Below the pieces are notes generated by a model. The model worked only from the letters and a program-made list of their open reading frames with translations. It was not told where the DNA came from and ran no database searches. A DNA stretch of 64,000 nt. Origin: Peptoniphilaceae bacterium. Its GTDB lineage: Bacteria; Bacillota; Clostridia; Tissierellales; Peptoniphilaceae. The position numbers and the translations under genes were made by a program. The stretch is taken from the NCBI GenBank assembly GCA_052090825.1, contig JBQDBK010000011.1, forward strand, positions 2,103 to 66,102. Direction: 5' to 3'. This document shows positions 3,613 through 46,302 of this stretch, piece after piece (position 1 is the stretch's first letter; each line of letters opens with the position of its first letter).

Positions 3613-3751
3613 TGTTATAATCTAATTATCAAAGAAATATTATAATTAATCAACTAAAAATATAAAAAAGTTTAAAAGAGAACGATACCAAATAAAATAG
3701 CTGATATTTGTAAACGTAGAAATAATAATTTAATAACAATCAAGATAAATA

Positions 3752-3780
3752 TTGAAAATTCGCCAATAATGTACTATTAT
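3752..3780 (+). promoter_or_regulatory. Candidate sigma-A promoter of the ecf-truA operon
   Basis: TTGAAA (3752-3757), 17-nt spacer, TATTAT (3775-3780), about 27 nt upstream of the ecfA1 ATG. Confidence 0.4.
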
Positions 3781-3806
3781 ATAAAAATATGTGAGGTATA
3801 AAATCT

Positions 3807-4634
3807 ATGATAGAAATAAATAATGTAAGCTTTAAATATAGTCAAGAGAGTGAAGTTAATATTATAAATAATTTAAACTTAAAAATTGAAAAGGGAGAGT
3901 TTTTAGCAGTATTAGGACACAATGGTAGCGGAAAATCAACTTTAGCTAAATTAATAAATGGCCTTTTGCTTCCAAGTTCGGGAAGTGTTTTAGTCAATGG
4001 AATGGATACTAAAAATGATGATTTAATTTGGGATATTAGGGCAAATACAGGCATGGTGTTTCAAAATCCAGACAATCAGCTTGTAGCTACAGTAGTAGAA
4101 GAAGATGTTGCTTTTGGTCCTGAAAATTTAGGGATTTCATCAGAAGAAATTGCCAAAAGAGTTACAGAATCTTTAGAAGCTGTAAATATGTTAGATTTTA
4201 GGGGGAATGCACCTCATATGTTATCTGGAGGGCAAAAGCAGAGAATAGCTATTGCAGGTATTTTAGCTATGTCTCCTGATTATATAATTTTAGATGAACC
4301 TACTGCTATGTTAGATCCTGTAGGTAGAAAAGAAGTTATGGATACTATAACCATGCTTAATAAAAGTCAAAATAAAACTATAATTTTAATAACACACTAT
4401 ATGGATGAGGCTGCTTTGGCGGATAAAATTGTAGTGATGGAAAAAGGGAATATAGCTTTAGAAGGAAGTCCCAGAAAAGTATTTTCAAAAGTTGATAAAA
4501 TAAAAGAAATTGGACTTGATGTTCCACAGGTTACAGAACTTGCTTGGGAATTAAAAAAAGAAGGTTATGATTTTAATGCTGAAGTTTTAAATGTAGAAGA
4601 ACTAGTAGGTGAATTATGGACATTATTGAAATAA
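3807..4634 (+). CDS. ecfA1: Energy-coupling factor (ECF) transporter ATPase A1
   Basis: Walker [13 protein letters not shown] signature LSGGQKQR, Walker B IILDEPT. It is the first of the conserved ecfA-ecfA'-ecfT-truA array. Confidence 0.9.
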
Positions 4635-29366: not shown

Positions 29367-29597
29367 ATTATCCCTCCTAAAATAAAGTATATATTATATG
29401 ATTATAATTACAATAGTGGATTAAATATTAATAAAAGTGATTATTTAAAATTACGACAGTGAAATATCACTTTAAAACGTTGAAATACAGACGTTTTCCT
29501 AAAATATAATTATAAAAGTAAATTGATATTATATAAAATTAATGGTAGAATATGTAAATATAAATATGAAAATGATTGCATTGGAGATTTGATAATT

Positions 29598-30602
29598 ATG
29601 GAAAAAAGAGAACCACTAATAGAAATAAAAAATCTTCATACAGGATTTAGAATAAAAGATGAATATTATGATGCCGTAGACGATGTTAGTTTAAATTTAT
29701 ACCCAGAAGAAGTATTGGCTATAGTAGGAGAGTCAGGTTGTGGTAAATCTACTCTAGCAACTACAGTTATGGGACTTCATAATTTAAACTTCACAAGAGT
29801 TTCAGGTGAGGTATTTCTAAAAGGTAAAAATATTCTAAATTCAAGTGAAGAGGAGTACAATAAAATAAGAGGCGGACAAATTGGAATGATATTTCAAGAT
29901 CCCCTATCAGCCTTAAATCCACTTCAAAGAATAGGGCAACAAATTGAAGAGGGTTTGATATATCATACAGATTTAAATGCTGAAGAAAGAAAAGCTAGAG
30001 CCTTAGAATTTCTACAAAGAGTTGGGATTGAAAATCCAGAAAGAATTTATAGACAATTTCCTCATGAATTGTCAGGGGGAATGCGCCAAAGAGTTATTAT
30101 CGCAATAGCACTTATTTGCAAGCCAGAAGTTATGATAGCTGACGAACCTACAACCGCTCTTGATGTAACCATTCAAGCCCAAATTTTAGATCTTTTATTA
30201 GATCTTCAAGATGAAATGAAAGCAGGAATCATACTCATAACTCATGACTTGGGAGTTGTGGCACAAGTTGCAGATAGAATAGCAGTTATGTATGCAGGTC
30301 AAATAGTGGAAATAGCAGAAGCTTCTGTTCTTTTTTCTAATCCCTTACATCCTTATACAAGGAGTCTATTAAACTCTATTCCTCAAGTAGATTTAAAAGA
30401 AGGAAGTAGATTACATGTCATTAAAGGAATGGTTCCATCTTTAAAGAATCTTCCAAGAACAGGATGTAGATTTGCACCAAGAATAGGGCATATACCACAA
30501 GAAGCTCATGAAGAGAATCCTGTCTTGCATGAAGTTGAACCAGGACATTTTGTTAGATGTACTTGTTATAAAGAATTCTATTTCAAAGAGGAGGATAAAT
30601 AA
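29598..30602 (+). CDS. Peptide ABC transporter ATP-binding protein (second system, OppD-like)
   Basis: Walker [10 protein letters not shown], signature LSGGMRQR, Walker [12 protein letters not shown]. Preferred start is ATG 29598 ([13 protein letters not shown]), because the track start at 29523 adds an implausible 25-aa extension. Confidence 0.85.
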
Positions 30603-31537
30603 TGAGTTTACTGGAAATTAAAGACTTAAAAGTTCATTATCCTATTAGAGGTGGATTCTTTAATAGGATTTTAGACTATGTATATGCAGTAGATGGTGTA
30701 GATATGTTCGTAGAAGAGGGTAAAACCTATGGACTTATAGGAGAAAGTGGATCAGGTAAATCTACTATAGGGAAAACTATACTAGGTTTGGAGAAAGCTA
30801 CTTCTGGTGAAATTATTTTTAATGGTAAGAATATTTTAGACAAAAAAATAAGAAAAAAAATAAATTATCATGAAGATGTTCAAATGATATTTCAAGATTC
30901 AATGTCAAGCCTAGACCCTAAAAAAAGAATATTAGATATTATGGCAGAGCCTATAAGGAATTTTGAACACCTTGATGAAAAAGCGGAAAGAAACAAAATA
31001 TATGACTTATTAAGCATCGTAGGTATGCAAAGAGATGCAATATATAAGTATCCTCATGAATTTTCTGGCGGACAGAGACAAAGAATTGGAGTTGCTAGAG
31101 CAATAGCGTGCCATCCTAAATTAATAGTGGCAGATGAACCGGTATCAGCTCTAGACTTATCTGTCCAGGCTCAAGTATTAAATTACATGAAAGATATACA
31201 AAAAGATATGAACTTAGCCTATATATTTATATCTCACGACTTAGGAGTAGTAAGACATATGTGTGATTATATATATATAATGCATAGGGGGAGATTTACT
31301 GAAACTGGGACAAAAGAAGATATATATGGGAATCCTCAGCATATTTATACAAAGAGATTAATATCTTCAATACCACGCATCAATCCAAATGTAAAATATG
31401 AGTTAAAAGAAATGAGAGAAAAAGTGGAAGAGGAGTTTGATAGTCTTTACAATTATTACTACGATAAAGAAGGAAAAGTCTACCCTTTGAAACAAATTTC
31501 TGAGACGCATTTTGTTGGAGAAAGGAAGGGTGAATAA
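30602..31537 (+). CDS. Peptide ABC transporter ATP-binding protein (second system, OppF-like)
   Basis: Walker A GESGSGKST, signature FSGGQRQR, Walker B IVADEPVSALD. Its start overlaps the preceding stop. Confidence 0.9.
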   Translation: MSLLEIKDLKVHYPIRGGFFNRILDYVYAVDGVDMFVEEGKTYGLIGESGSGKSTIGKTILGLEKATSGEIIFNGKNILDKKIRKKINYHEDVQMIFQDSMSSLDPKKRILDIMAEPIRNFEHLDEKAERNKIYDLLSIVGMQRDAIYKYPHEFSGGQRQRIGVARAIACHPKLIVADEPVSALDLSVQAQVLNYMKDIQKDMNLAYIFISHDLGVVRHMCDYIYIMHRGRFTETGTKEDIYGNPQHIYTKRLISSIPRINPNVKYELKEMREKVEEEFDSLYNYYYDKEGKVYPLKQISETHFVGERKGE

Positions 31538-31539
31538 TT

Positions 31540-32502
31540 ATGTGGAAGACTATAGTAAGAAGATTTTTAATAATGATACCTCAGCTTTTTATTCTTAGTT
31601 TATTAGTGTTTATATTAGGTAAAATGATGCCAGGAGATCCATTTACAGGTATGGTAAATCCTAAAGTAGATCCTTCAATAATTGAAAAATTAAGAGTTGA
31701 ATCTGGATATTATGATCCATGGTACGTACAGTATTTTAATTGGATAAAAAGAGCCTTACATGGAAATTTAGGATTAAGCTATAATTACAATTTACCTGTT
31801 TTGAAGGTAATAGGACCAAGAGCTCTAAATAGTTTTGCTTTGTCTTTTATTTCTTTAATAATGATGTATATGATAGCTATACCTTTTGGTATATTTGCTG
31901 GTAAAAATGCTGGTTCAAAGTTTGATAAGGGTGTGGTATTTTTTAATTTCTTTACTTTAGCTATACCAAGCTTTGTACTTTATTTATTTATGATATTAAT
32001 ATTCGGTTATAAATTAGGATGGTTTCCAACAATAGGATCTGTAGCTTCAAATTTAGCAAAGGGTAGCTTGCCTTATTATCTAAGTAAACTACACCACATG
32101 ATACTACCAGCCTTATCTATGGCTATACTTGGAACTACAGGAACAATTCAATATTTAAGAAATGAAATAATAGATGCTAAAACACTAGACTATGTGAAAA
32201 CAGCAAGAAGTAAAGGTGTTCCAATGAGAAAAGTTTATACTAATCATATATTTAGAAATTCTTTATTACCAATAGCTGCTTTCTTTGGATTTCAAATATC
32301 AAATCTCTTAGCGGGATCTGTTATAGCTGAGTCTATATTTAACTATCAAGGAATGGGGAAATTCTTTTTAGAATCGATTAATACTAGAGACTATAGTGTT
32401 GTAACAGCACTTATATTAATATATGGATTTTTATTTTTATTAGGATCACTTTTGTCTGACATCACTATGAGTATAGTTGATCCAAGAATAAGAATAGAAT
32501 AG
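31540..32502 (+). CDS. Peptide ABC transporter permease (second system, OppB-like)
   Basis: 320-aa polytopic protein with the EAA-like region VKTARSKGVP. Confidence 0.85.
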   Translation: MWKTIVRRFLIMIPQLFILSLLVFILGKMMPGDPFTGMVNPKVDPSIIEKLRVESGYYDPWYVQYFNWIKRALHGNLGLSYNYNLPVLKVIGPRALNSFALSFISLIMMYMIAIPFGIFAGKNAGSKFDKGVVFFNFFTLAIPSFVLYLFMILIFGYKLGWFPTIGSVASNLAKGSLPYYLSKLHHMILPALSMAILGTTGTIQYLRNEIIDAKTLDYVKTARSKGVPMRKVYTNHIFRNSLLPIAAFFGFQISNLLAGSVIAESIFNYQGMGKFFLESINTRDYSVVTALILIYGFLFLLGSLLSDITMSIVDPRIRIE

Positions 32503-32505
32503 GAG

Positions 32506-33480
32506 GTGATCATATTGTCAAACTTAGAATTCAAACCAGAAATGGAAGATCCAGAACTTCTTATAAATAAAGAAAAAGAAGAAGAGCTGGCAGAGGAGAA
32601 ATTGAGAAGTGAAAATCCAGTTGGCTTCAGTGTTATTTTAAGAGAGTTTAAAAAAGATAAACTTGCAACGTTTTGTTTTTTTGCCTTAGTAGGATTTATT
32701 TTATTTGTTTTTATAGGATCTTTATTCGTGGATATGGATACCTTAAATAGAGTAGATATTTTAAGAAAATATGATCCGCCTTCATTTGAAAGTATTTGGG
32801 ATATACTAGGAAGAGATAATGGAGGAAAATCTATTTTTGGAATGTTATTAGTAGGAGCAAGAAATTCTATAACAATAGGTGTAGCAATAACTCTTTTAAC
32901 AACTTTACTAGGTCTAATAAGTGGATTAGCCATGGGTTATTATGGTGGATTAGTAGATAATATTATAATGAGAATTGTGGACTTTATAGGTACACTACCT
33001 ACACTTATGATAATTATAGTTTTTGTAACAATAGTACCAACTTATAACATATTATCATTTATTTTAATCATGACAGCTTTTTATTGGGTTGGAACTGCAA
33101 GGTTAGTTAGGTCAAAAGCTTTATCAGAAGGAAGAAGAGATTATGTAAATGCGTCTAAGATTATGGGTACAAATGATTTAAAAATAATGTTTGGAGGAAT
33201 TCTACCTAATATATCTTCTATAATAATAGTAGATGGAACTTTAGCTCTAGCAGCTAATATTGGAATAGAAACTTCTTTATCATTTTTAGGTTTTGGGTTT
33301 CCACCTAACATTCCATCTTTGGGGACTTTAATATCATTAGCATCAAAACCGGAAATAATACAGTATAAGACTTATGTTTGGCTACCAGCAGCCATAACAA
33401 TTTTATTTATGATGCTTTGTATAAATTATGTAGGACAAGCCTTAAGGAGAGCATCTGATGCTAAACAAAGACTTGGTTAA
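32506..33480 (+). CDS. Peptide ABC transporter permease (second system, OppC-like)
   Basis: 324 aa. GTG start is preceded by AGGAGG. Has an acidic N-terminal extension and then the OppC-type TM core (VNASKIMGTN). Confidence 0.8.
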   Translation: MIILSNLEFKPEMEDPELLINKEKEEELAEEKLRSENPVGFSVILREFKKDKLATFCFFALVGFILFVFIGSLFVDMDTLNRVDILRKYDPPSFESIWDILGRDNGGKSIFGMLLVGARNSITIGVAITLLTTLLGLISGLAMGYYGGLVDNIIMRIVDFIGTLPTLMIIIVFVTIVPTYNILSFILIMTAFYWVGTARLVRSKALSEGRRDYVNASKIMGTNDLKIMFGGILPNISSIIIVDGTLALAANIGIETSLSFLGFGFPPNIPSLGTLISLASKPEIIQYKTYVWLPAAITILFMMLCINYVGQALRRASDAKQRLG

Positions 33481-33533
33481 TTAGGTAATAAGCTTTTTAG
33501 CTTTTACAATATAATTTCTTAGGAGGATAAAAT

Positions 33534-35342
33534 ATGAATAAAAAATGGGTTAGCAAAATAACATTATTATTAGCTTTCATGTTTTTACTAACAGCTTGTG
33601 GAGGAGGATCTAGTAAACAAGAATCTCTAGGTAGTTCTGAAATAGAAAAAAAATATCCAGCTGTAGTTGAAAATGAAGGTGAAGTAATAGACGGAAGTAA
33701 TCTTACTTTAAAAGTAGGTGTAGTTTCAGATTCGCCATATAAGGGGATTTTCAATGGTTTTCTTTATAAAGATAGTATTGATGAAAGGTTTATGAAATAT
33801 ACTATGCTTGGAGCCTTTCCAATTGATGGTGATTTAAAGCTAATTGCAGATAGTGATGAAACTCCAATTAAATTAACTTTTGACTTAGAGAATAAAACAG
33901 TGAATTATAAAATTAATCCTAAATTTAAATGGTCAAATGGAGAACAAGTTACTACAGCAGATATAGTTAAGACATATGAAATTGTTGCAAATAATGATTA
34001 TATAGTTTCAGCTAAATCAGTAAGATATGGCGATGAAATGAAAATAATAGAAGGAATTGAAGAATATAACAAAGGAAAAGCTGATAAAATTTCAGGACTT
34101 GAAGTTATAGATGATTCTAATATGAAGATTCATTTAAAAGAAATGACTCCAGGAATTTACTGGGGAGGACCATTTGTTAGTGAATTTGTAAATGCAAAAC
34201 AATTTGAAGGCGTTGCAATGAATAAAATTATTGAATCACCAGCTCTAAGACAAAATCCATTATCTTATGGACCTTATGTTATGAAGAGTCAAGTAATGGG
34301 AGAAAAAATATTATTTGAAGCTAATCCTTATTATTATAAGGGAGAACCAAATATTAAAAATTTAGAGATGCAAATACTTCCACCATCCCAACAAGTTGCA
34401 TCAATGGAGTCTGGTAAATACGATATAGTAATGGATGCCAATGCAGATGTTTTCCCACAAATTGAACCATTAGAAAATATGACTATAGCTTCTAGAATGG
34501 ACCTTTATATGTCTTATCTAGGTTTCCGTGTAGGAACTTATGATAGACAAAATAGCAAAATAATAACAGATACAAATTCAAAAATGTATGATGTTAATTT
34601 AAGAAAAGCTATGGGACATGCCATAGACAATGATACTATTGGAGAAAAATTCTACAATGGATTAAGATTCCATGCTGTAAGCCCAATAGCACCAATTTTC
34701 AAAAACTTACACGATCCAGAAATTAAGGGCATAGAATTTGATATGGACAAAGCTAAATCTCTTTTAGATGAGGCTGGATACAAAGATGTTGATGGTGATG
34801 GATTTAGAGAAGATAAAGATGGAAATCCATTAGTAATAAATTATGCATCTATGACTGGATCAGAAATTGCTGAACCACTAGCACAATATAATATTCAACA
34901 ATGGAAAGATATAGGACTTAATGTTAAATTATTAAATGGAAGGCTTTTGGATCTTAACAATTTCTATGACAAATTAGAAGCAGATGATCCTCAAATTGAT
35001 GTATTCTCTGCAGCTTTTGGATTGGCATCAGATCCTAACCCAACAGGGCTATATGGAGATAGTGAGGCTTTTAACTATTCAAGATATACTTCTGATAAAC
35101 TTCAAAGTTCTCTAGAAGCATTAGGATCAAATGAAGCGTTGGATCCAGAAAATCAAGCTAAATTATATCATGAATTTGAAAAAATATTTCAAGAGGAATC
35201 TCCATCTATCCCTATGTTAAATAGGGTAGAATTTATGCCAATTAATAAGAGAATAAAATTTTATGATTGGTCTATGGATGATGAGAGCGGATTTGATTGG
35301 TCTAAGATAGAACTTACAGCTGAAGAACCAATAGCAAATTAA
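33534..35342 (+). CDS. Peptide ABC transporter substrate-binding lipoprotein (second system)
   Basis: Lipobox LTACGGGSS. 602-aa family-5 SBP-like protein. RBS AGGAGG upstream. Confidence 0.85.
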   Translation: MNKKWVSKITLLLAFMFLLTACGGGSSKQESLGSSEIEKKYPAVVENEGEVIDGSNLTLKVGVVSDSPYKGIFNGFLYKDSIDERFMKYTMLGAFPIDGDLKLIADSDETPIKLTFDLENKTVNYKINPKFKWSNGEQVTTADIVKTYEIVANNDYIVSAKSVRYGDEMKIIEGIEEYNKGKADKISGLEVIDDSNMKIHLKEMTPGIYWGGPFVSEFVNAKQFEGVAMNKIIESPALRQNPLSYGPYVMKSQVMGEKILFEANPYYYKGEPNIKNLEMQILPPSQQVASMESGKYDIVMDANADVFPQIEPLENMTIASRMDLYMSYLGFRVGTYDRQNSKIITDTNSKMYDVNLRKAMGHAIDNDTIGEKFYNGLRFHAVSPIAPIFKNLHDPEIKGIEFDMDKAKSLLDEAGYKDVDGDGFREDKDGNPLVINYASMTGSEIAEPLAQYNIQQWKDIGLNVKLLNGRLLDLNNFYDKLEADDPQIDVFSAAFGLASDPNPTGLYGDSEAFNYSRYTSDKLQSSLEALGSNEALDPENQAKLYHEFEKIFQEESPSIPMLNRVEFMPINKRIKFYDWSMDDESGFDWSKIELTAEEPIAN

Positions 35343-35356
35343 ATATGAATAAAAAA

Positions 35357-35387
35357 AGAGAAGTTTAATTAAGCTTCTCTTTTTTTA
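35357..35387 (+). terminator. Intrinsic terminator after the second peptide transporter operon
   Basis: AGAGAAGTTTAA / TTAAGCTTCTCT hairpin (one G-U pair) followed by a T7 run. Confidence 0.8.
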
Positions 35388-35808
35388 TTTATATTCAATA
35401 AGTTAATTTTAGGAAAGAGAAGATAAATTCTTTAAAAATCTATAATGAATATTGGGGGTTGCTTTATAAATATAAAGAAGTAAAGATAATAGCAAGAGAT
35501 TTATTGAATATTTAAAGCTTAGAAGTGGCTTGATAAAGCTTGATATCTTTGGGAATTTAAAATACAAATTTGAATAAATATATTATAGACAAAAATATTA
35601 TGAAGAAATAGTGAGGTTTAAAAAAGCAGTAATATCAAAGCGTACAAGAGGGTAAGGATAACATTATATATATCCTGATTTATAATAAGTATTATTTAAT
35701 TTAACAATATAAAATATTTTAATAAAATAATAATTTTGATTTTAATTTTATGAGTTAAGGGTATATTAATTTATAGAGATTATAAACTTAGGAATTAAAA
35801 AGAAAGTC

Positions 35809-35850
35809 TTGACATGCCAAAAACAATCTTATACTATATCAGTATAGTAT
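35809..35850 (+). promoter_or_regulatory. Candidate sigma-A promoter with an overlapping 8-4-8 palindromic operator
   Basis: TTGACA (35809-35814), 17-nt spacer, TACTAT (35832-35837). A perfect inverted repeat ATACTATA-tcag-TATAGTAT (35831-35850) covers the -10 and the likely transcription start. Confidence 0.45.
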
Positions 35851-36019
35851 GTTTTGTTTATTTTAGATGAAATTATATTTTTTTATACTATAGAAAACCT
35901 TTTCTATATCTAATAAAAAGTATAATTTTTATGCAAAAATATAAGCAACTAAAGTTTTTTGGATTGACAATAAGGCTGAAACTAAGATTTTAATTTATTA
36001 AAGAAAGAGGGGCAAATAA

Positions 36020-37954
36020 ATGTTATTTAAAACTAATCAAGAGCATGAAGAATTAAGAAAAGCAATTAGAGAATTTTCTGAAGCAGAAATAAAACCTATA
36101 GCATTTTCTTTAGATCAAAACAATGAATTTCCTGATGAAATTATTAAAAAAATTGGAGAAAATGGATGGATGGGCTTACCATATTCTAAAAAAGATGGTG
36201 GAGCTGGAAAAGATGTATTATCTTATGCAATTGCAGTAGAAGAACTTTCAAGAGTTGATGGTGGAGTAGGTGTAATTTTATCTGCACATACATCTTTGGG
36301 ATCTTATCCTATAGAAGCTTTTGGTACAGAGGAACAAAAGAAAAAATACTTAGTACCTTTAGCAAAAGGAGAAGCTATTGGTGCATTTGGTCTAACAGAA
36401 CCAGAAGCAGGAAGTGATGCTGGTGGGACTGAAACTGTAGCAGAACTAGATGGAGACCATTACATTTTAAATGGTAATAAAATATATATAACTAATGCAC
36501 CAAAAGCTGATTATTATATTGTTTTTGCAGTTACAACACCTGGAATAGGAACTCACGGTATATCAGCTTTTATAGTTGAAAGAGGATGGGAAGGATTTGG
36601 ATTTGGAGATCATTATGATAAATTAGGTATAAGATCTTCTTCTACAGCTGAATTAACATTTGATAATGTAAAAGTACCAAAAGAAAATCTATTAGGTAAA
36701 GAAGGACAAGGTTTTAGAATTGCAATGCAAACACTTGATGGTGGTCGTATTGGTATTGCGGCTCAAGCTTTAGGTATAGCTCAAGGAGCTTATGAAGCGG
36801 CTTTAAAATATGCTAAGGAAAGAATTCAATTTGGTAAACCAATTGCTAGACAACAAATTATTTCTTTTAAATTAGCTGATATGGCTACAAAATTAAGATG
36901 TGCTAGATTTCTAGTATATTCAGCAGCAGAAATGAAACAAAACCATGAAAATTATGGTATGGAAGCAGCCATGGCAAAACAATACGCTTCAGATGTATGT
37001 TTAGAAATTGTAAATGATGCTCTTCAAATACATGGTGGTGCTGGATATCTAAAAGGTATGGACGTAGAAAGATTCTATCGTGATGCTAAGATAACTACTA
37101 TTTATGAAGGAACAAATGAAATTCAAAGAGTAGTTATAGCTGCAAATATAATTGGTAAATTACCTAGAAGTAAAAGAGGTTCAGCAGGAGTAGCAGCAAA
37201 AAAAGAAGGGCCTATAACTGGAAATAGAAAAAGACAAATAATCAAGGCGGATACAGCTAAAGAGGCAGTAGATGAATTAGTTGCTAATCTTAAAAAAGAT
37301 GGATATGACTTTACCGTGGGAATAGATATAGATACTCCGATTTATGAGTCAGAAAGAGTAGTTAGTATTGGTAAAGGAATTGGCTCAAAAGAAAATTTAG
37401 AAATGGCAAGAGAGTTAGCTCATGCAGCTGGTGCTTCTTTAGGTAGTTCAAGACCAGTAGCTGAAACAATGAAACTTTTACCTCTAGAAAGATATGTAGG
37501 AATGTCTGGTCAAAAATTTAAGGGAAATTTATATATAGCTTGTGGTATTTCAGGAGCATCTCAACACCTTAAAGGAATAAAAGATGCATCTACTATTGTA
37601 GCTATTAATAAAAATTCTGGAGCACCTATCTTTAAAAATGCTGATTATGGAATAGTAGGAGATATGCACGAAATAATGCCACTTCTAGCTGAAGCTTTGG
37701 GAACAGGTGAAAAGAAAGAAGCTCCTCCAATGAAAAAAGTTAGAAGATCAAAACCTAGAAAATTAGCCCCAACTTATGGAGTATATGTATGTCCAGGTTG
37801 TGGATATGAATACGATCCAAATGTTGGAGATCCAGAAGGAGAAATTGATCCAGGAACAACTTTTGAAAAACTTCCAGATGATTGGACTTGTCCAGAATGT
37901 CAAGAAGAAAAACAAAACTTTATTGAAGAAGAATATCCAGAGGATAGAAAGTAA
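36020..37954 (+). CDS. Tri-domain fusion: acyl-CoA dehydrogenase + ETF-alpha C-terminal FAD domain + rubredoxin
   Basis: aa 1-~380 carry ACAD signatures ([21 protein letters not shown], catalytic-base context [10 protein letters not shown]). aa ~430-560 match the ETF-alpha FAD-domain signature ([29 protein letters not shown]). aa ~586-640 form a rubredoxin (CPGC ... CPEC). The reading frame is uninterrupted, and RBS AGAGGGG lies upstream. Confidence 0.85.
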
Positions 37955-37971
37955 TAAGGAGGATATAGATT

Positions 37972-39213
37972 ATGTATGCAGTTAGAAAAGTTACTGATGA
38001 CTTATATTGGGTTGGTGGAAATGACCACAGATTAGAATTATTCGAAAATATTTTTCCTATACCAAAGGGAGTTTCCTATAATTCATATTTATTACTAGAT
38101 AAAAAAACTGTTTTATTTGATTCAGTTGATTGGTCAATAGCTCGTGATTTAATAGAAAATATTAAGTCTGTACTTGATGGAAAAGACCTTGACTATTTTG
38201 TAATCCATCATATGGAACCTGATCATGCAGCTGGAATTGAAGAAGTTTGTATGAGATATCCAAATGTAAAACTTGTTTCAAGTGAACAAGGTTTTGAAAT
38301 AATGAGACAATTAGGATACGATTTAATAGAAAAACACGAATGTATAATTGTTAAAGAAGGCGACACTATGAACTTTGGTGAGCATACTTTTGCCTTTGTA
38401 GAAGCACCAATGGTACATTGGCCAGAAGTTATCTTAAGTTATGATACTAAAGATGGAGTATTATTTGCTGCAGATGCCTTTGGTACATTCGGAGCCTTAG
38501 ATGGTAAGTTGTTTAATGATGAAGTTAATTTTGATAGAGATTGGTTAGATGAAGCTAGAAGATATTATACTAATATTGTTGGTAAATATGGTCCTTTTGT
38601 TCAAGATGTATTAAAAAAAGCTTCTACTTTAGATATTAAATATATTTGTCCACTTCATGGTCCAGTTTGGAGAAATAATTTTGAATACATTATTGATAAA
38701 TATGACAAATGGTCAAAATATGAACCTGAAGAAACTGGTGTTATGATAGCTTATGCTTCAATGTATGGAAATACAGAACGTGCTGCCCAAGCTTTAGCTA
38801 GTGAGCTTTGTGATAAGGGTATGACAAATGTAGTTGTTCACGATGTATCAAATACACATATGTCTGAATTAATATCTGACTCTTTTAAATATTCTCATAT
38901 AGTTTTAGCTTCTGTAACTTACAACTTAGAAATTTATCCAATTATGAAAAACTTTATAATGGATATGGCAGCTTTGAACCTACAAAACAGAACTGTTGGA
39001 ATAATTGAAAATGGTAGTTGGGCTTGTACAGTAGGTGACAAGATGGAAGAGTTTGTAGAAGAGCAATTAAAATTAGTAGACGTTTTAAATGACAGAGTTA
39101 CAGTTAACTCGGCTTTAAATGAAGCTAATGCTAATGATATGCATAGTTTAGCTGATTCAATTTTAGAATCAATGGAAAAAATTAAAGAAATTAAAGAAAA
39201 ATTCAATAAATAA
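37972..39213 (+). CDS. Class-A flavodiiron protein (FprA / rubredoxin:oxygen or NO oxidoreductase type)
   Basis: 413 aa with a metallo-beta-lactamase-like diiron motif HHMEPDHAAG and a C-terminal flavodoxin-like domain (VMIAYASMYGNTE). RBS AAGGAGG upstream. Starts 17 nt after the fusion gene. Confidence 0.9.
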   Translation: MYAVRKVTDDLYWVGGNDHRLELFENIFPIPKGVSYNSYLLLDKKTVLFDSVDWSIARDLIENIKSVLDGKDLDYFVIHHMEPDHAAGIEEVCMRYPNVKLVSSEQGFEIMRQLGYDLIEKHECIIVKEGDTMNFGEHTFAFVEAPMVHWPEVILSYDTKDGVLFAADAFGTFGALDGKLFNDEVNFDRDWLDEARRYYTNIVGKYGPFVQDVLKKASTLDIKYICPLHGPVWRNNFEYIIDKYDKWSKYEPEETGVMIAYASMYGNTERAAQALASELCDKGMTNVVVHDVSNTHMSELISDSFKYSHIVLASVTYNLEIYPIMKNFIMDMAALNLQNRTVGIIENGSWACTVGDKMEEFVEEQLKLVDVLNDRVTVNSALNEANANDMHSLADSILESMEKIKEIKEKFNK

Positions 39214-39224
39214 ATATTTGATGT

Positions 39225-39267
39225 AAATAAACCATAGGTTATCTACCCTATGGTTTATTTATGTTTT
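39225..39267 (+). terminator. Intrinsic terminator after the flavodiiron gene
   Basis: AAATAAACCATAGG (39225-39238) / CCTATGGTTTATTT (39247-39260), followed by a T-rich tract. Confidence 0.8.
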
Positions 39268-39298
39268 TACAAGTCCTATAATTTAGTGACTAAATTAT

Positions 39299-39326
39299 AG
39301 GGAAGGTGCTTAAGGGAAGGTGCTTA
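39299..39326. repeat. Two tandem copies of a 14-bp unit
   Basis: AGGGAAGGTGCTTA occurs twice back to back, immediately after an 11-bp-stem hairpin CCTATAATTTA gtgac TAAATTATAGG (39275-39301). Confidence 0.8.
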
Positions 39327-39535
39327 TATGAAAAATATTTAAAGAACTTTAAAGATTCCTTTGTATTTTTAATTATAATTTCAAATATTATATTTAGTGA
39401 TTCCTATGAGTATATATAAATATAAACTTACTTAAAAAGTAAAAAATTTTATTAAAAGAATTTATATTATTTTTTATACTAATGAGTATTATAGACTTTA
39501 TATCTGAGAATTTTAAAGGAAATAAGAATACATAA

Positions 39536-39572
39536 TAAAAAAATACTATCTTCAAATGAGATAGTATTTTTG
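39536..39572. terminator. Terminator downstream of the minus-strand operon (palindromic, usable in both directions)
   Basis: ATACTATCT tcaaatg AGATAGTAT flanked by A7 and T5 runs. Confidence 0.7.
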
Positions 39573-39573
39573 T

Positions 39574-40062
39574 CTATAAAAATATTAAACCGCTAAAGTA
39601 GGATAAAAGAAGACCTGATACAAAGTTACCTAAGGCTATTATTAATATGGAGGTTTTTTTGTTTAAGTTGACTATATTTGCTATTAAGGAAGCAGACCAA
39701 ACTCCTGTACCTGGTAAGGGAATAGCAACTAATAAGAAAAGTCCAAATTTTTTAAATTTAATAGCTTTTTCATATTTAATGTGTGATTTCTTTACTAAAT
39801 GACTAATGGTATTTTTTAAAATATTCCTACTTTTTAAAAAGTTAAAAACATGTCTGATATAATAAACTATAAATATTGAAGGTATAAGAGATCCTATATA
39901 AGATATAGAAAAACATTTAAACCAGTGCATATCTAATGATATACCAATAGGAATTGCTAATTTCATTTCAGCTAAGGGTAGCATAGATATGAAAAAAATA
40001 GCAAGTTCTTTAGATAATATAGTACTTAGTTTCTCAGCTATATAATTCATTATGTCCTCCAA
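39574..40062 (-). CDS. Small membrane protein of the 'small multidrug export' (COG2426-like) family
   Basis: 162 aa, about 4 TM segments, with the PLPGTGVWSA motif typical of this family. Confidence 0.6.
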   Translation of the reverse strand: MEDIMNYIAEKLSTILSKELAIFFISMLPLAEMKLAIPIGISLDMHWFKCFSISYIGSLIPSIFIVYYIRHVFNFLKSRNILKNTISHLVKKSHIKYEKAIKFKKFGLFLLVAIPLPGTGVWSASLIANIVNLNKKTSILIIALGNFVSGLLLSYFSGLIFL

Positions 40063-40105
40063 AAAAATAAGATATTTATAATTATAATTTTATTAAAAAT
40101 AAGTT

Positions 40106-41422
40106 TCAAATATTTGTTACAAAAATATTAGGAGCAGTATAGTAGTTTTTTCCTCCACCAATTGTAGGATTTTTACCTATTCTAATATAAGGTGCAATAA
40201 ATTCTTCGTCATATATAAACATACCGAGAACAGCTCTAAAGTCATTTAATTCTACTTGACCAAGTTTATTAAATTCCACAAACTTAATAGGATCCATTGA
40301 GTAAAATTCTTGATAAATATAGTTATTATTACAAGCAATATCTACTTTTTTATTCCAATTTTCTTGATTGAATTGTCTTCCAGGATATACACCATGGCTT
40401 CCATAATCATCAACAGGTTTTAATATATACTTATCTTTATTATCTTTTAATTCTTTTGAATGTTCAGTACTAAGGCTATTAGTATAAGGTATATGAGCTT
40501 TTAAAAATTTAATTTCTTCACTGTTTAAAAAGTTGAAAGTAGCTTGGTCTAAAAGTATTTTAAAGCTAAGTTTAGTATGCATTATTTGAGATCTAAAAGA
40601 TCCTAGCATCATAAAAGCATTATCATAATACGCTGAAATAAAATCTGTTAGCTCATTATAATGCTTCATAAACTCTACTGTTACAGCCCTTCTATAGACT
40701 AAGTCAATTTGGTAATCCTCATGCATTAGTTTGCCATCTATATATTTTAAATTTCTAATATCACAGATTATACAATTATAACCATTATCTTCATATACTT
40801 TTTTAAATTTTTCAAATTCATAGGTAGTCCCAATATCTAAGAAATCGACTATAGCAAGATTAGGTTTTTTATTATGGATTGTTTCATAAATTTTAGTGGA
40901 TTTTTTAACCCAAGGTGTAAATAAATCGACGTTTTCTATTTTATAAAAAGTTTGAAACTTTTTCATTGCTTTAGTTTCTAATAATAATTTTCCTATTTCA
41001 TTGTCTTCATTCATGGCAGATGATCCATCGGTATTAAATTCGCAAAATTTAAATCTATCTCCACCATTGTAAAAAACATCATATCTTGCAATAGGAACTG
41101 GTATATCGTAGCCAGGATCATGTAGAATTAAATTTTCTAAATTCTTAGGGAAATTAAATAATTTTCTATATTCCCTATTTGTTAAATATTCTTTGACAAC
41201 TTTTCTGCTTATATTCATTAATATTTTGCACATATTCGTAAAGTTATTTCTATCATCTTGGGAATAAAAAAGACCTTGGTAAATATGAGGCACAGGCTCT
41301 CCTTTATAAATTGCATTAGAATTTTTAACTTTAGATTTTAATTTTAGAAAATCTTCATAATATTCTTCTGGATTTTCTTTGATTATTTCATAATATTTTT
41401 TTACATATTTATCATTATACAT
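40106..41422 (-). CDS. ATP-grasp ligase of the glutathionylspermidine-synthase-like (YgiC/YjfC-like) type
   Basis: 438 aa. The segment ARYDVFYNGGDRFKFCEFNTDGSSAMNE resembles the R-x-D...E-x-N-x-D core of the GSP-synthetase family. An 8-nt overlap joins it to the upstream ligase gene. Substrates unknown. Confidence 0.5.
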   Translation of the reverse strand: MYNDKYVKKYYEIIKENPEEYYEDFLKLKSKVKNSNAIYKGEPVPHIYQGLFYSQDDRNNFTNMCKILMNISRKVVKEYLTNREYRKLFNFPKNLENLILHDPGYDIPVPIARYDVFYNGGDRFKFCEFNTDGSSAMNEDNEIGKLLLETKAMKKFQTFYKIENVDLFTPWVKKSTKIYETIHNKKPNLAIVDFLDIGTTYEFEKFKKVYEDNGYNCIICDIRNLKYIDGKLMHEDYQIDLVYRRAVTVEFMKHYNELTDFISAYYDNAFMMLGSFRSQIMHTKLSFKILLDQATFNFLNSEEIKFLKAHIPYTNSLSTEHSKELKDNKDKYILKPVDDYGSHGVYPGRQFNQENWNKKVDIACNNNYIYQEFYSMDPIKFVEFNKLGQVELNDFRAVLGMFIYDEEFIAPYIRIGKNPTIGGGKNYYTAPNIFVTNI

Positions 41423-42710
41423 AAAATTCCTCGATTCTATTAGACATTAAAGTTTCTTTAAAAGCTTTATTTTCTAAGTCTATTAAAAATTTATCTTTAG
41501 GATTAAGTCCTTGATTTAAAAGATTTATTAATGGTTTTAAATATTCTTTTTCTTCATTAGTAAGGCTTTTACTTGCAAGTTCTACTAAAAATTTACCATG
41601 TTCTAAAAGACTTTTATTTAAGTAAATTGTATTTAAGCCTTTATCCTTAGATTTTTCTTTTACAGCCATTACATCTTGGTAAGTTACTTTTTCGAAAAGC
41701 TCATACAGTATATGAAGATTTTCTTGAGAATAAAATAAACCTTTAATAAGTGCCACTGCAGAAAAATTTAAAGGGAAGTTTACACTATCAAACATCCTAA
41801 ACTCTAAATAATTTTTAACTCTTATGTCAGGAAAAACTATTGAAAGCATATGGAATATAAAATCTTCTGTAGGATTGTTAATATATAAATTTTTAAACTT
41901 TTCTTCTGTTTTGAATAATTTTCCATCTTTTTCTATAAATATTGGACTATTATTTATTATAAATTCCGCATATCTTTCATAAGATAAGTTTTTATCAAAA
42001 GCTAGACTCAAAAGACCAGATCTATCATTATCGGTATTTTCCCAAATAGTTTGTCTAAGATTATGTTTTTTGTATATTTCATTTTCAAATATAGGAGAAT
42101 TATCAAAAAGTGAGTACAAAATAGGAGAAATAGCAGAAGCTACAAAATACTTTAATTTAAAATCATTTTCATCTTTATAATCTATACTAATTTGAACAGA
42201 AGAAGTTCCTTTCATCATATTATATGCCAAAGTTCCTTTTTCCTTAAAGTGATTATACATGTATTTATACCTATTTTTGGGAAGAATTTTTATTTCATCA
42301 ATTTTCGTTTTAGGATGATAGCCAAGGGCCAAAATGCTCTGATTTTTTGAAGCAAAAATTTTATAGGCATTATTAATAAATTTTTTATAAATACAAACTA
42401 ATTCCTTAATTGTCTTTTTATAATTAATACTTACTTCGAATTGTGAACCTGGCTCTGTAGAAACATTTATTTCTTCAGACTCAAAACCTAGCATGTATCC
42501 ATTTTCTAAATGAGGAAGTCCATTGTAAATATTACATAATTCTCTTATGCTCTCTTCAACTCCATTTTTATTATAAAAAGAAATAGTTTTAAAACTATTA
42601 TTATCTATAATAAAATGCTCGAATTCAGTTCCTATACTAAATTCACTAGAATTTTTTTCGCCTTTTTTAATATAATCAATTACTTTATTAGTTATTATTT
42701 TAGAATCCAC
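41415..42710 (-). CDS. Glutamate--cysteine ligase family (GCS2-like carboxylate-amine ligase) protein
   Basis: 431 aa. The N-terminal SIGTEFEHFII and the later LEFRMFDS resemble glutamate-cysteine ligase family motifs. RBS GGAGG upstream. Confidence 0.55.
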   Translation of the reverse strand: MDSKIITNKVIDYIKKGEKNSSEFSIGTEFEHFIIDNNSFKTISFYNKNGVEESIRELCNIYNGLPHLENGYMLGFESEEINVSTEPGSQFEVSINYKKTIKELVCIYKKFINNAYKIFASKNQSILALGYHPKTKIDEIKILPKNRYKYMYNHFKEKGTLAYNMMKGTSSVQISIDYKDENDFKLKYFVASAISPILYSLFDNSPIFENEIYKKHNLRQTIWENTDNDRSGLLSLAFDKNLSYERYAEFIINNSPIFIEKDGKLFKTEEKFKNLYINNPTEDFIFHMLSIVFPDIRVKNYLEFRMFDSVNFPLNFSAVALIKGLFYSQENLHILYELFEKVTYQDVMAVKEKSKDKGLNTIYLNKSLLEHGKFLVELASKSLTNEEKEYLKPLINLLNQGLNPKDKFLIDLENKAFKETLMSNRIEEFYV

Positions 42711-42852
42711 AAAAGGACCTCCTTAAAACATTATTATTAAATTATACCACAAAAATCCAATTTCAAAGATATATGTCTATTAAGAAAACTTAAAAAGTAA
42801 TATAATTAAGTTAGATGCCTACTTTTAAAATTAAAATTTAAGAGGTGAGAAA

Positions 42853-43203
42853 ATGCAAGATAATATTATAAAAATGACAAGGCAAAAAGAATTAGAGCTT
42901 GAAAGTATAATAGAAATATTAAAAGAAAAAATCAAGGGAGAATTAATATCTAAAGTATATGAAAATATAAAAGGCGTAAAAATAGTTTTGTTAAATTTTG
43001 AAAAATACTATTTTAGAACTGGAGGAAAGGCAGGATTAAGTATCCTTTTGACAGAAGATAATAACTTTCAAAAAGTATCCCTAATTGGATTTGCTGGTGG
43101 AGGAGGTATTTTAAATATTACTTTTGGGGCAAATAATGACTTTCTAGAAAAAGGAGAAGAAATCTTATTAGGATTAGGCTTTGAAAGAGAAATATTTAAT
43201 TAA
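42853..43203 (+). CDS. Hypothetical small protein
   Basis: 116-aa ORF with RBS AGAGGTGAG and a Gly-rich segment GFAGGGGIL. No family recognised. Confidence 0.5.
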   Translation: MQDNIIKMTRQKELELESIIEILKEKIKGELISKVYENIKGVKIVLLNFEKYYFRTGGKAGLSILLTEDNNFQKVSLIGFAGGGGILNITFGANNDFLEKGEEILLGLGFEREIFN

Positions 43204-43235
43204 TTTTTATTTAATAATTTAATAAAAAAATAAAA

Positions 43236-43260
43236 GCAATTTATATTTTATATAAATTGC
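43236..43260 (+). terminator. Possible terminator hairpin after the hypothetical gene
   Basis: GCAATTTATA tttta TATAAATTGC. No clear T-tract downstream. Confidence 0.3.
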
Positions 43261-43370
43261 TAAAGTATAAGGTTTTTCAAGGCGAAAGCTATAACAATAA
43301 TAATTATTACTTAACTTAAAAGGGTAAGATTATAGTATAAAGTGTTTATAAATATAGAAAGGAGAAATAA

Positions 43371-44801
43371 ATGGAATTTAATATAAATAAAACAGGTGGA
43401 CTAAAGGTGTCCTTTATTAAAGAAGGTGAAAGTTTAGATAACCCAATATACAAATGGGCTAAGGACCATAAAAATTTCAAAGGTGAAATGGGGGAACTAT
43501 TATATTTTCCAAAATTAGATGGGGAATCTGAAGTTCTATTTGGTCTAGGAAATCTTGATGAAATTGACTTAGATAAAATAAGACTTGGATTTTATAAACT
43601 AGCCAAACTATTACAAGACAAGAATGAAAAAGAAGTGGAAATTAGTATGCCAGATTTAAAAATGTGTAATAGGAAAACTTTAATGGCTGTTTATGAGGGA
43701 TTTAGACAAGCTGAATATTTATTTTCTAAGAAAGAAATAAAAAAAGAGAGTAAAGAATTAATTGTTAATTATACTGCCTTTAAAGGACCAGAGGAAAAAC
43801 TTAAAGAGGGCCTAAATAGAATTAAATCTCAAATGGAAGGTGTGTTTTTAGCTAGAGACCTAGTAAATGAGACATCAAATGTTATATATCCAGAAAGCTT
43901 AGCAAATATAGCTAAAGAAAAATTAGAAAATTTAGGTGTAGATGTAAAAGTTTATAATAAAGAAGAAATAAAAGATATGGGTTTGGTAGCCTTTTTGTCA
44001 GTAGCTCAAGGATCTGACAAGGAAGCGAAACTTATTGTAATGAAATATATAGGAGACAAGGAAAGTAGTTTGACAACAGGTCTTGTTGGGAAAGGGCTAA
44101 CTTATGATAGTGGCGGTTATTCAATAAAATCAGCTAAAGGTATGGCTAGTATGCATTGTGATATGGGTGGAGCAGGAACTGTAATAGGAACCATGTATGC
44201 TTTGGCAAAATCTAAAGCTAAGAGTAATGTAGTAGGTGTAGTAGCTGCTTGTGAAAACTTAATTTCTGGAAAAGCATATAAAACAGGAGATATAATATCC
44301 TCTCTTTCAGGTAAGACTATTGAAGTTGCAAATACTGATGCTGAAGGAAGGCTGACATTGGCTGATGCTGTGTACTATACAAGCAATAATTTAAAAGTTG
44401 ATAAAATAATAGATCTTGCTACTTTAACTGGTGCAGTATCATCAGCTTTAGGAGAAGAATATACAGGAGCTATTACTAACAATGAAGAATTCTTTGAAGA
44501 CTTTAAGCTTGCTGCAAGTGAAGCTGGAGAAAAAGTATGGGAATTACCTAATGATGAAAAATATAAAGAATACTATAAATCTAAGGTAGCAGACTTAAAA
44601 AATATTTCTTCCAATGGTGCAGGAACAATAACTGCAGGACAGTTTGTAGGAGAATTTGTAACCAATAATATACCTTGGATTCATTTAGATATAGCAGGAA
44701 CAGCTTATATAAGTAAGGCTACAGGATATTTACCAGAAAGAGCAACAGGAATTCATGTAAAGGCGCTTCACAATTTATTGAATCCTATAAGTGAATGTTA
44801 A
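43371..44801 (+). CDS. pepA: Leucyl aminopeptidase (M17 family)
   Basis: 476 aa with the M17 signature NTDAEGRLTLADA and the metal-site context GKGLTYDSGGYSIK. Confidence 0.9.
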   Translation: MEFNINKTGGLKVSFIKEGESLDNPIYKWAKDHKNFKGEMGELLYFPKLDGESEVLFGLGNLDEIDLDKIRLGFYKLAKLLQDKNEKEVEISMPDLKMCNRKTLMAVYEGFRQAEYLFSKKEIKKESKELIVNYTAFKGPEEKLKEGLNRIKSQMEGVFLARDLVNETSNVIYPESLANIAKEKLENLGVDVKVYNKEEIKDMGLVAFLSVAQGSDKEAKLIVMKYIGDKESSLTTGLVGKGLTYDSGGYSIKSAKGMASMHCDMGGAGTVIGTMYALAKSKAKSNVVGVVAACENLISGKAYKTGDIISSLSGKTIEVANTDAEGRLTLADAVYYTSNNLKVDKIIDLATLTGAVSSALGEEYTGAITNNEEFFEDFKLAASEAGEKVWELPNDEKYKEYYKSKVADLKNISSNGAGTITAGQFVGEFVTNNIPWIHLDIAGTAYISKATGYLPERATGIHVKALHNLLNPISEC

Positions 44802-44804
44802 TAA

Positions 44805-44831
44805 AAAAGATGGCTATTAGCCATCTTTTTT
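44805..44831 (+). terminator. Intrinsic terminator after pepA
   Basis: AAAAGATGGC tatta GCCATCTTTT followed by Ts. Confidence 0.8.
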
Positions 44832-44902
44832 AATGGAAACAATTTCTAGAAAATTAGAAAATTTATATATAAAATTTTGTGAATTAAAATATACTTTAAG
44901 TT

Positions 44903-44931
44903 TTGATTAAATTCTAATAATTTGCTATACT
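44903..44931 (+). promoter_or_regulatory. Candidate sigma-A promoter for gltS
   Basis: TTGATT (44903-44908), 17-nt spacer, TATACT (44926-44931). Implies a ~125-nt leader. Confidence 0.35.
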
Positions 44932-45063
44932 AAAAGTAATAAATATTAATAGATTAAAGGATTACAGAAAAGCTTATTAAATAATCTGAAATCGTTAACA
45001 TAATTGATATTAATATTTTGCTAGAGAAATTATTTAAAGATAATTAAATTCAGGAGGTAATTA

Positions 45064-46302
45064 ATGGTATTTAAAAATGTAGGTGGAGTCTTAAATATTA
45101 ATCTAAATGCAATTATAACTTTAGCTTTAGCAGTAATTTTATTACAATTAGGATTTTTCACAAATAGAAAAATTAAAATTATAGATAAATACTGCATACC
45201 AGCACCAGTTGTCGGAGGATTTATATTTATGTTTATCACATGGTTAGGACATATAAATAATTTATTTGTTTTTAACTTTGAAAATATTTATCAAGATGTT
45301 TTTATGTTAGCTTTTTTTACAACAGTAGGGCTTGGGGCAAGCTTTAAAATTTTAAGAAAAGGTGGTAAATTACTTATAATTTACTGGCTTATTGCAGGCG
45401 TAGTTTCAATTATACAAAATACTTTAGGTATTACAATATCTAAAATTATTGGTATAGAAGCTCCTTACGCTCTATTATCAAGTGCAATTTCTATGATTGG
45501 TGGACATGGAGCAGCTTTATCTTACGGGGATGAATTTTCAAAGTTGGGTTATGAAATAGCCCCTTTAGTAGGAGCCGCTGCTGCAACATTTGGTCTTATA
45601 TGCGCCGTTCTTATAGGAGGACCATTGGGAAGAAGACTTATTGAAAAAAATAATTTAAGTCCAGATGAAGATGAAATCATTGATGAATCTATTATGAATA
45701 TAAATGCAGATAGGGGAGAAAAATTAAATTCACTTGATATTTTGAATAATGTAACAGCTATAATAGTTTGCATGGCTATAGGAACTATGATTGTGAATTG
45801 GGTAAATGAGAGTTTTGATTTACCTGTACCTACTTATGTGGGAGCTATGTTCGTTGCAGTAATTGCTAGGAATTTAAATACAAAATTTAAATTTTATAAA
45901 TTTGATTTTGCTGTTGTTGATAATATAGGAAATGTGATGTTGAGCTTATATTTATCATTAGCTCTTATGACTTTAAAACTATGGGATCTTTCAGGATTAA
46001 TAGGGGGAGTATTGATAATAGTCTTAATGCAAGTAATTGTACTATCCCTACTATCATATTTTGTAGTATTTAGGATATTAGGAAGTAACTACGATGCTGC
46101 TGTTATGTGTGCTGGTTTATGTGGTCATGCTTTAGGAGCAACACCATCTGGTATAGTTAATATGACAGCTTTAAATGATAAGTATGGAATGAGTAGAAAA
46201 GCTATGATGATAGTACCTATAGTAGGAGCTTTTTTGGTAGATATAGTTTATCAACCTCAGACTATATTTTTTATAAAGATGTTTGTAGAAAATTTAAAGT
46301 GA
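45064..46302 (+). CDS. gltS: Sodium/glutamate symporter GltS
   Basis: 412-aa polytopic protein with the GltS-like segment SMIGGHGAALSYG. RBS AGGAGG upstream. Confidence 0.8.
   Translation: MVFKNVGGVLNINLNAIITLALAVILLQLGFFTNRKIKIIDKYCIPAPVVGGFIFMFITWLGHINNLFVFNFENIYQDVFMLAFFTTVGLGASFKILRKGGKLLIIYWLIAGVVSIIQNTLGITISKIIGIEAPYALLSSAISMIGGHGAALSYGDEFSKLGYEIAPLVGAAAATFGLICAVLIGGPLGRRLIEKNNLSPDEDEIIDESIMNINADRGEKLNSLDILNNVTAIIVCMAIGTMIVNWVNESFDLPVPTYVGAMFVAVIARNLNTKFKFYKFDFAVVDNIGNVMLSLYLSLALMTLKLWDLSGLIGGVLIIVLMQVIVLSLLSYFVVFRILGSNYDAAVMCAGLCGHALGATPSGIVNMTALNDKYGMSRKAMMIVPIVGAFLVDIVYQPQTIFFIKMFVENLK

Follow-up and report, generated by a model that had tools for sequence, protein, structure and literature searches.

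We analysed a 64,000-nucleotide stretch of DNA (the window) from a Peptoniphilus-like member of the Peptoniphilaceae (contig JBQDBK010000011.1 of assembly GCA_052090825.1). The sequence is AT-rich, with about 28% G+C, and is contig C11 of the 1.87 Mb host genome (G000). Our subject is a pair of co-directional genes in this window (Table 1), the first encoding a fusion of an acyl-CoA dehydrogenase (ACAD) resembling butyryl-CoA dehydrogenase (Bcd), domain II of the alpha subunit of electron-transferring flavoprotein (ETF) and a rubredoxin, and the second encoding a class A flavodiiron protein (FDP). An earlier note on this DNA had described just such a fusion with a class A FDP gene 17 nt downstream; its coordinates are exact, and the domains are confirmed by Pfam. 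In Fusobacterium nucleatum the equivalent fusion is named BCR, and the complex of BCR with its FDP is butyryl-CoA:oxygen oxidoreductase, BOOR (PMC12288474).

Table 1. Features of the gene pair, its control elements and the related loci with an adjacent Rrf2 gene.
Feature	Coordinates or loci	Strand	Details
BCR-type fusion gene	36020-37954	+	644 aa; Bcd-like ACAD, EtfA domain II and rubredoxin
Short-chain acyl-CoA (butyryl-CoA) dehydrogenase domain	36020-37159	+	residues 1-380
ETF-alpha FAD-binding domain (domain II only)	37220-37705	+	residues ~401-562
Rubredoxin domain	37775-37930	+	residues ~586-637; Cys591/594/624/627
FDP ribosome-binding site	37956-37962	+	AAGGAGG, within the 17-nt gap; sequence reading
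Class A FDP gene	37972-39213	+	413 aa
Intrinsic terminator hairpin	39220-39265	+	19-bp stem, 8-nt loop, then U-run
Candidate sigma-70 promoter	35809-35837	+	TTGACA (35809-35814), 17-nt spacer, TACTAT (35832-35837)
Operator-like palindrome over -10 box/start region	35831-35850		ATACTATA-TCAG-TATAGTAT; perfect 8-4-8; sequence reading
Alternative reading of the operator-like palindrome	35829-35847		TTATAC-N7-GTATAG
Rrf2-linked BOOR loci	L037, L040, L057, L063, L066, L067, L068, L076, L078	same as BCR	rrf2 at ~3400-3990 of each locus

An in-frame TAA stands immediately 5' of the fusion start, so the open reading frame has neither an N-terminal extension nor a longer isoform. The intergenic gap (37955-37971) is too short to hold a promoter or terminator of the FDP gene's own. 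Downstream of the pair lies a hairpin that RNA folding puts at -22 kcal/mol (z = -6.88, with none of 200 shuffled sequences equally good); it is essentially the same element as the shared terminator previously placed at 39225-39267, and it is absent from the list returned by a simple terminator scan. On the 5' side of the fusion gene are 677 nt of non-coding sequence, in which a scan picked out, by consensus match alone (10 of 12 positions), a candidate promoter for the operon; an Rfam search of positions 28000-46000 at E <= 0.1 returned no known riboswitch or leader in this upstream region.

The fusion is partitioned by Pfam into Acyl-CoA_dh_N/M/1 (residues 7-377), ETF_alpha (441-521; E = 4e-26) and Rubredoxin (589-634; E = 1e-18). 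The solved structures nearest to the ACAD domain are Bcd of C. difficile (5ol2_C; E = 1.5e-136), the A. fermentans (4l1f) and M. elsdenii (1buc) enzymes and short-chain acyl-CoA dehydrogenase (SCAD); comparison with the solved butyryl- and short-chain enzymes by Foldseek gives target-normalised TM-scores of 0.86-0.90, the value for 5ol2_C being 0.89 with 57% identity in the structural alignment. Glu363 of the YEGTNEI motif, presumably the catalytic base, is kept in 28 of 28 BCR counterparts. When the C-terminal 247 residues are compared with EtfA of C. difficile (5ol2_A), only residues 206-329 of its 331 are matched (E = 1.3e-29). In this ETF segment Arg478 and Gln515-His516 (within a GISGAxQHLKG motif) are invariant across the 28 aligned BCRs, as are the four cysteines of the rubredoxin, a segment that matches PDB rubredoxins such as 1e8j (E = 8.5e-16). 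A single-chain AlphaFold model of the fusion (pLDDT 70, pTM 0.49, with the ETF domain at pLDDT ~85-90) supports the individual folds, not the arrangement of the domains.

The FDP consists of an ODP/Lactamase_B domain (residues 34-230) and a Flavodoxin_1 domain (259-360) with nothing further, and this two-domain composition of metallo-beta-lactamase plus flavodoxin domains places it in class A. Membership of class B, the NorV type, does not fit, as the protein ends after the flavodoxin domain and carries no C-terminal rubredoxin, which here sits on the dehydrogenase subunit instead. The diiron ligands His80, Glu82, Asp84, His85, His149, Asp168 and His229 correspond in alignment to the ligands of E. 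coli flavorubredoxin and are invariant in all 23 aligned FDPs. The BOOR-type FDP forms a distinct group: two other FDPs are encoded in the host genome, at only 37% and 28% identity to this one. The more similar of the two is a second class A FDP (C4:57322-58527), and a free rubredoxin of 54 aa is encoded at C8:28796-28960. BOOR-type FDPs also share a conserved ENGSWA loop (residues 346-351 of the window protein, P0002; window positions 39007-39024), which we take to be the FMN loop of the flavodoxin domain; the host paralogues read FGSYSWSG and FGTYGWSG at this position, making ENGSWA a change specific to the clade, and one that might bear on the FMN potential or on how the fused rubredoxin docks.

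A homologue scan with one genome per species found relatives of the fusion at 542 loci, and 80 of these, all from other genomes, were retained. They span two phyla and cover Peptoniphilus, Clostridium, Eubacterium, Butyricicoccus, Roseburia, Megasphaera, Filifactor and Fusobacterium. Each of the 80 has the FDP counterpart as the next gene downstream, in the same orientation and after a gap of 7-236 nt (median ~30 nt), so the linkage is not a chance event. The divergence of BCR is correlated with that of FDP (r = 0.87), indicating that the two genes are inherited together. The earlier note had named a lack of linkage in other genomes as refuting its two-protein chain, and linkage held throughout. 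Conservation across the 80 loci extends to no neighbour other than the FDP gene: 17 have a nitroreductase-like gene and about 10 have an Rrf2 gene, both of which the window lacks. Within the host's own family, the full-length fusion is found in 81 of 151 sampled genomes (65 of 124 when counted among high-quality genomes, and 34 of 56 by genus), the closest named relative being that of Peptoniphilus mikwangii at 89%.

Two further observations concern this distribution. Between Fusobacteriota (L047-L049) and Bacillota the identities are unusually high for a cross-phylum comparison (72-75% for BCR and 64-68% for FDP), which from the sequences suggests lateral transfer of the whole BOOR operon. 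Separately, fusions of about 565 aa that join an ACAD to EtfA domain II and lack the rubredoxin occur as paralogues in five genomes of the same family (L106-L110; genomes G081, G076, G035, G162 and G026), mostly without an adjacent FDP; at L109 a divergently oriented FDP (43% identity) accompanies the rubredoxin-less fusion, and at L110 the rubredoxin-less form, a full BCR and an FDP stand in tandem.

BOOR was reportedly characterised by Bystrom and Wolthers (Biochemistry 2024, 63:2352). [quoted passage not shown] The system is reported to be conserved among butyrogenic Firmicutes, and PDB sequence searches with the fusion and with the FDP found no BOOR structure. The window pair has the same three-domain BCR, the same two-domain class A FDP and the same gene order. 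The fusion is 75% identical to its F. necrophorum counterpart (L048) and 72% identical to a Fusobacterium sp. BCR (P0184, which occurs on 532 contigs), while the FDP is 68% identical to a Fusobacterium sp. FDP (L093) and 64-65% identical to that of F. necrophorum; the Fusobacterium sp. locus is likewise bicistronic, encoding proteins of 637 and 400 aa, an arrangement seen in loci L093-L096. There are differences: the host is a Peptoniphilus-like member of the Bacillota and not of the Fusobacteriota; in the Peptoniphilus-like clade BCR has a C-terminal tail (EEYPEDRK) of about 8-9 residues following the rubredoxin and the FDP one of about 11 residues, both absent from the Fusobacterium counterparts; and the promoter and operator differ, with no GntR or Rrf2 gene adjacent.

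Taken together, these data identify the locus as a bicistronic BOOR operon, with a probability that we put at about 0.9. Complex formation, substrate, electron path and O2 selectivity of the window pair would then be those of the published counterpart. Butyryl-CoA would be oxidised at the ACAD domain. Single electrons would move from there to the FAD bound by the EtfA domain II segment of the fusion and on to the fused [Fe(Cys)4] rubredoxin. The co-translated FDP would take them up through its FMN and diiron centre and reduce O2 to water. The earlier note had put forward such a two-protein chain, running from acyl-CoA through the ETF flavin and rubredoxin to a class A FDP and O2; by analogy with the chain demonstrated biochemically for F. 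nucleatum BOOR (PMC12288474) this proposal appears correct, and it is not new. How BOOR works, how it is built and how widely it is distributed among Firmicutes have already been published, and the window copy is an ordinary intact member.

Several points weigh against this identification. The identity of the window copy as BOOR is argued from similarity to the characterised system, and the Fusobacterium sequences used for the comparison are the F. necrophorum locus and the Fusobacterium sp. proteins, not FN1424 and FN1423 by name. Substrate specificity is not readable from sequence, and the top NCBIfam match, AcrC, lies far below its cut-off. The low inter-domain confidence of the AlphaFold model leaves it silent on the geometry of the electron path. 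On the side of the FDP, Asp53 corresponds to Asp52 of the E. coli enzyme, a residue of the NO type, and a 2026 structural study treats the determinants of FDP selectivity as still unsettled (PMC13133992).

The last two points bear on the idea that the pair is mainly an acyl-CoA-fed NO reductase serving nitrosative-stress defence. Class A FDPs of some organisms do reduce NO, and, beyond the shared aspartate, the top NCBIfam and PDB sequence matches of the window FDP are to the NO reductase flavorubredoxin of E. coli. The NorV models of NCBIfam nevertheless score it at just 209-217 bits against cut-offs of 635-711. Moreover, Tyr265 occupies the position of E. coli Ser262 and is the O2-type residue there; in an O2 reductase of Entamoeba, a tyrosine at the equivalent position protects the enzyme during O2 turnover (PMC13133992). 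The characterised BOOR has no NO reductase activity (PMC12288474), which leaves the NO reduction suggested in the earlier note unsupported. The host also holds an FDP in a more typical NO-response setting: the 28%-identical paralogue (C3:62205-63428, in the minus-strand region C3:61541-64181), which resembles the NorV core of E. coli more closely, is flanked by two genes assigned by eye, one as a di-iron repair gene of RIC/ScdA-like type and the other as a regulator of the Crp/Fnr family, and this cluster is likely an NO-responsive module separate from BOOR. On balance we consider an NO-reducing role for the window pair unlikely.

The source of electrons was examined by comparison with the bifurcating Bcd-EtfAB complexes (C. 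difficile 5ol2; A. fermentans 4l1f/4kpu). In these complexes domain II of EtfA carries the alpha-FAD, which shuttles electrons to and from Bcd, and the NADH/beta-FAD site is formed by EtfB together with EtfA domain I. The ETF segment of the fusion is homologous to EtfA domain II, and that is all it retains: it aligns to EtfA 206-329 alone and the window operon has no EtfB gene, so that, unlike Bcd-EtfAB, the fusion has no beta-FAD, no NADH site and no means of bifurcation. The two systems would differ also in their acceptors, which are ferredoxin or flavodoxin for Bcd-EtfAB and, by analogy with BOOR, rubredoxin and FDP here, with the reaction running in the oxidative direction. That bifurcating complexes use NADH is the one argument for NADH as the physiological donor, entering at the ACAD or ETF flavin in the manner of an NADH:rubredoxin oxidoreductase, as had been offered as an option for the ACAD flavin. 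With EtfB and EtfA domain I missing, no Rossmann or NAD-binding domain detected in the Pfam scan of the fusion, and butyryl-CoA given as the substrate of the published enzyme (PMC12288474), we regard such a route as highly improbable.

Other chains built on FDPs are NROR-rubredoxin-FDP of C. acetobutylicum, Hrb-FDP of M. thermoacetica and NorV/NorW of E. coli. In those, as in the window pair, rubredoxin is the direct donor to the flavodiiron core, and all have the fold and ligands of the FDP in common. The reductant, however, would here be an acyl-CoA at about -10 mV and not NAD(P)H, and the rubredoxin is fused to the dehydrogenase, whereas it is free in the NROR chain and fused to the FDP in NorV.

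The potentials typical of rubredoxins are close to that of the butyryl-CoA/crotonyl-CoA couple. The couple lies at about -10 mV (PMC12288474), and this proximity, together with the published subunit name 'butyryl-CoA reductase', could be taken to mean that the fusion works in reverse as a rubredoxin-dependent crotonyl-CoA reductase whose adjacency to the FDP gene is merely regulatory. Such an arrangement would not be expected to show invariant adjacency and co-divergence of the two proteins across two phyla, nor the stable alpha4beta4 complex reported, in that same source, for the counterpart, and no rubredoxin reductase is encoded alongside. We hold this reading to be very improbable.

The host genome provides the setting in which a BOOR operon would be expected to operate. 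It contains a canonical bcd-etfB-etfA cluster (C10:26472-29446), a second etfBA pair, an RnfC that scores 486 bits against a curated cut-off of 246 bits, and thl-crt-hbd (C5:45876-48707; hbd from PF02737, thl and crt by sequence reading). With these systems butyryl-CoA can be made and crotonyl-CoA recycled. The companion systems (Bcd-EtfAB, Rnf and a crotonyl-CoA pathway) match those accompanying the F. nucleatum enzyme, for which the same trio of BOOR, Bcd-Etf and Rnf has been described; the three are encoded together in many anaerobic Firmicutes according to PMC12288474. The crotonyl-CoA produced by BOOR would be re-reduced by the bifurcating Bcd-EtfAB, which in conjunction with Rnf would let the cell gain a modest amount of energy from removing O2.

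The composition of the genome also bears on the fuel. The same machine could have another or a broader fuel, oxidising isovaleryl-, isobutyryl-, 2-methylbutyryl- or valeryl-CoA from amino-acid fermentation besides or instead of butyryl-CoA. No NCBIfam equivalog reaches its cut-off on the fusion (AcrC scores 468 bits against 640), peptide-uptake and peptidase genes surround the operon in this peptide-fermenting, Peptoniphilus-like host, and the genome encodes one further ACAD only. Set against this are the nearest solved relatives of the ACAD domain (5ol2_C, 4l1f, 1buc and SCAD), all of them specific for butyryl or short-chain substrates, the high conservation of this domain with Fusobacterium, where butyryl-CoA is the demonstrated substrate, and the complete butyryl-CoA route in the genome. 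A different or wider fuel is therefore possible but doubtful, and we retain butyryl-CoA as the probable substrate of the window enzyme.

BOOR accounts for the ability of strict anaerobes that form butyrate to consume O2 at no cost in NAD(P)H, and lowers butyrate output upon intrusion of O2. The intact Peptoniphilus-like copy, which shares its genome with Bcd-EtfAB, Rnf and thl-crt-hbd, widens the range over which BOOR is documented, and the frequency of the fusion in the family helps to explain the aerotolerance of these anaerobes of skin, wounds and mucosa. No new principle is added by this copy; what is new concerns regulation alone, and this clearly varies from lineage to lineage.

The operator-like palindrome that overlies the promoter of the window operon (Table 1) recurs, as the same 8-4-8 sequence, upstream of BOOR in the closest relative (L003). 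More widely, 8-mers containing GTATAC are present in 25 of 75 BOOR upstream regions, as compared with about 0.4 in shuffled sequences, an excess that is inflated by kinship among the loci. Five Clostridium BOOR promoters (L050, L054, L064, L073 and L077) carry GTATAC hexamers in phased sets of 2-4, separated by 7 nt, and many Peptoniphilus upstream regions (in L008-L022) contain TTGTATAC twice, 16 nt apart. The equivalent promoter of Clostridium beijerinckii has four GTATAC hexamers. In four Clostridium genomes, none of the four exact GTATAC-N7-GTATAC sites examined beyond the BOOR promoter is promoter-proximal, all of them falling in coding regions or in a terminator hairpin, and no GTATAC regulon or autoregulated regulator was found among these exact sites.

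A second mode of control may operate at the Rrf2-linked loci, at which a gene for an Rrf2-family regulator with three conserved cysteines immediately precedes BCR in the same orientation. Palindromes resembling ACTGGAyAAA...TTTrTCCAGT are found at these loci either before rrf2 or between rrf2 and BCR. A 2026 preprint reports that BOOR pairs adjoin an Rrf2 regulator in gut Clostridia (PMC13404960; bioRxiv 10.64898/2026.07.15.738679), the BCR-FDP pair there being the same, and its association with Rrf2 was seen independently in our analysis. The window differs from these loci: it has no adjacent Rrf2 gene, its operator is different, and the nearest Rrf2 homologue of the host (33% identity) is on another contig.

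A dedicated DNA-binding protein reading (G/T)TATAC-N7-GTATA(C/G) promoter dyads might, though this is less likely than not, control BOOR here, in Clostridium and in other Peptoniphilus; separately, and with the same reserve, the enzyme might accept branched-chain acyl-CoAs. If the regulatory proposal is true, there would be a dyad-based control circuit distinct from the Rrf2 regulator proposed for gut Clostridia.

One candidate for such a protein was considered and set aside. A MerR-family gene of the host (C5:78204-79025, 273 aa; region C5:78140-79025) has a promoter of the form TTGACT-19 nt-TAAAGT, the spacer of which holds TATACTATAAGGGTATAG, a near-identical TATAC-N7-GTATA dyad that matches TATACTATATCAGTATAG of the window at 15 of 18 positions. 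Other operators are found at the full-length homologues of this protein from P. mikwangii, P. indolicus, another Peptoniphilus and a Clostridium, and the TATAC-N7-GTATA core occurs seven times in the genome where about ten occurrences are expected by chance; for lack of support we do not name the MerR protein as the BOOR regulator.

Just past the terminator, sequence reading reveals two tandem copies of AGGGAAGGTGCTTA (39299-39326). Beyond them, convergent with the BOOR operon, is a three-gene unit on the minus strand (39574-42710) that encodes a GCS2-family protein resembling glutamate-cysteine ligase, an ATP-grasp protein that matches GSP_synth weakly, and a small membrane protein of a multidrug-export family; this unit may provide for the synthesis of a low-molecular-weight thiol or peptide beside the O2-defence operon.

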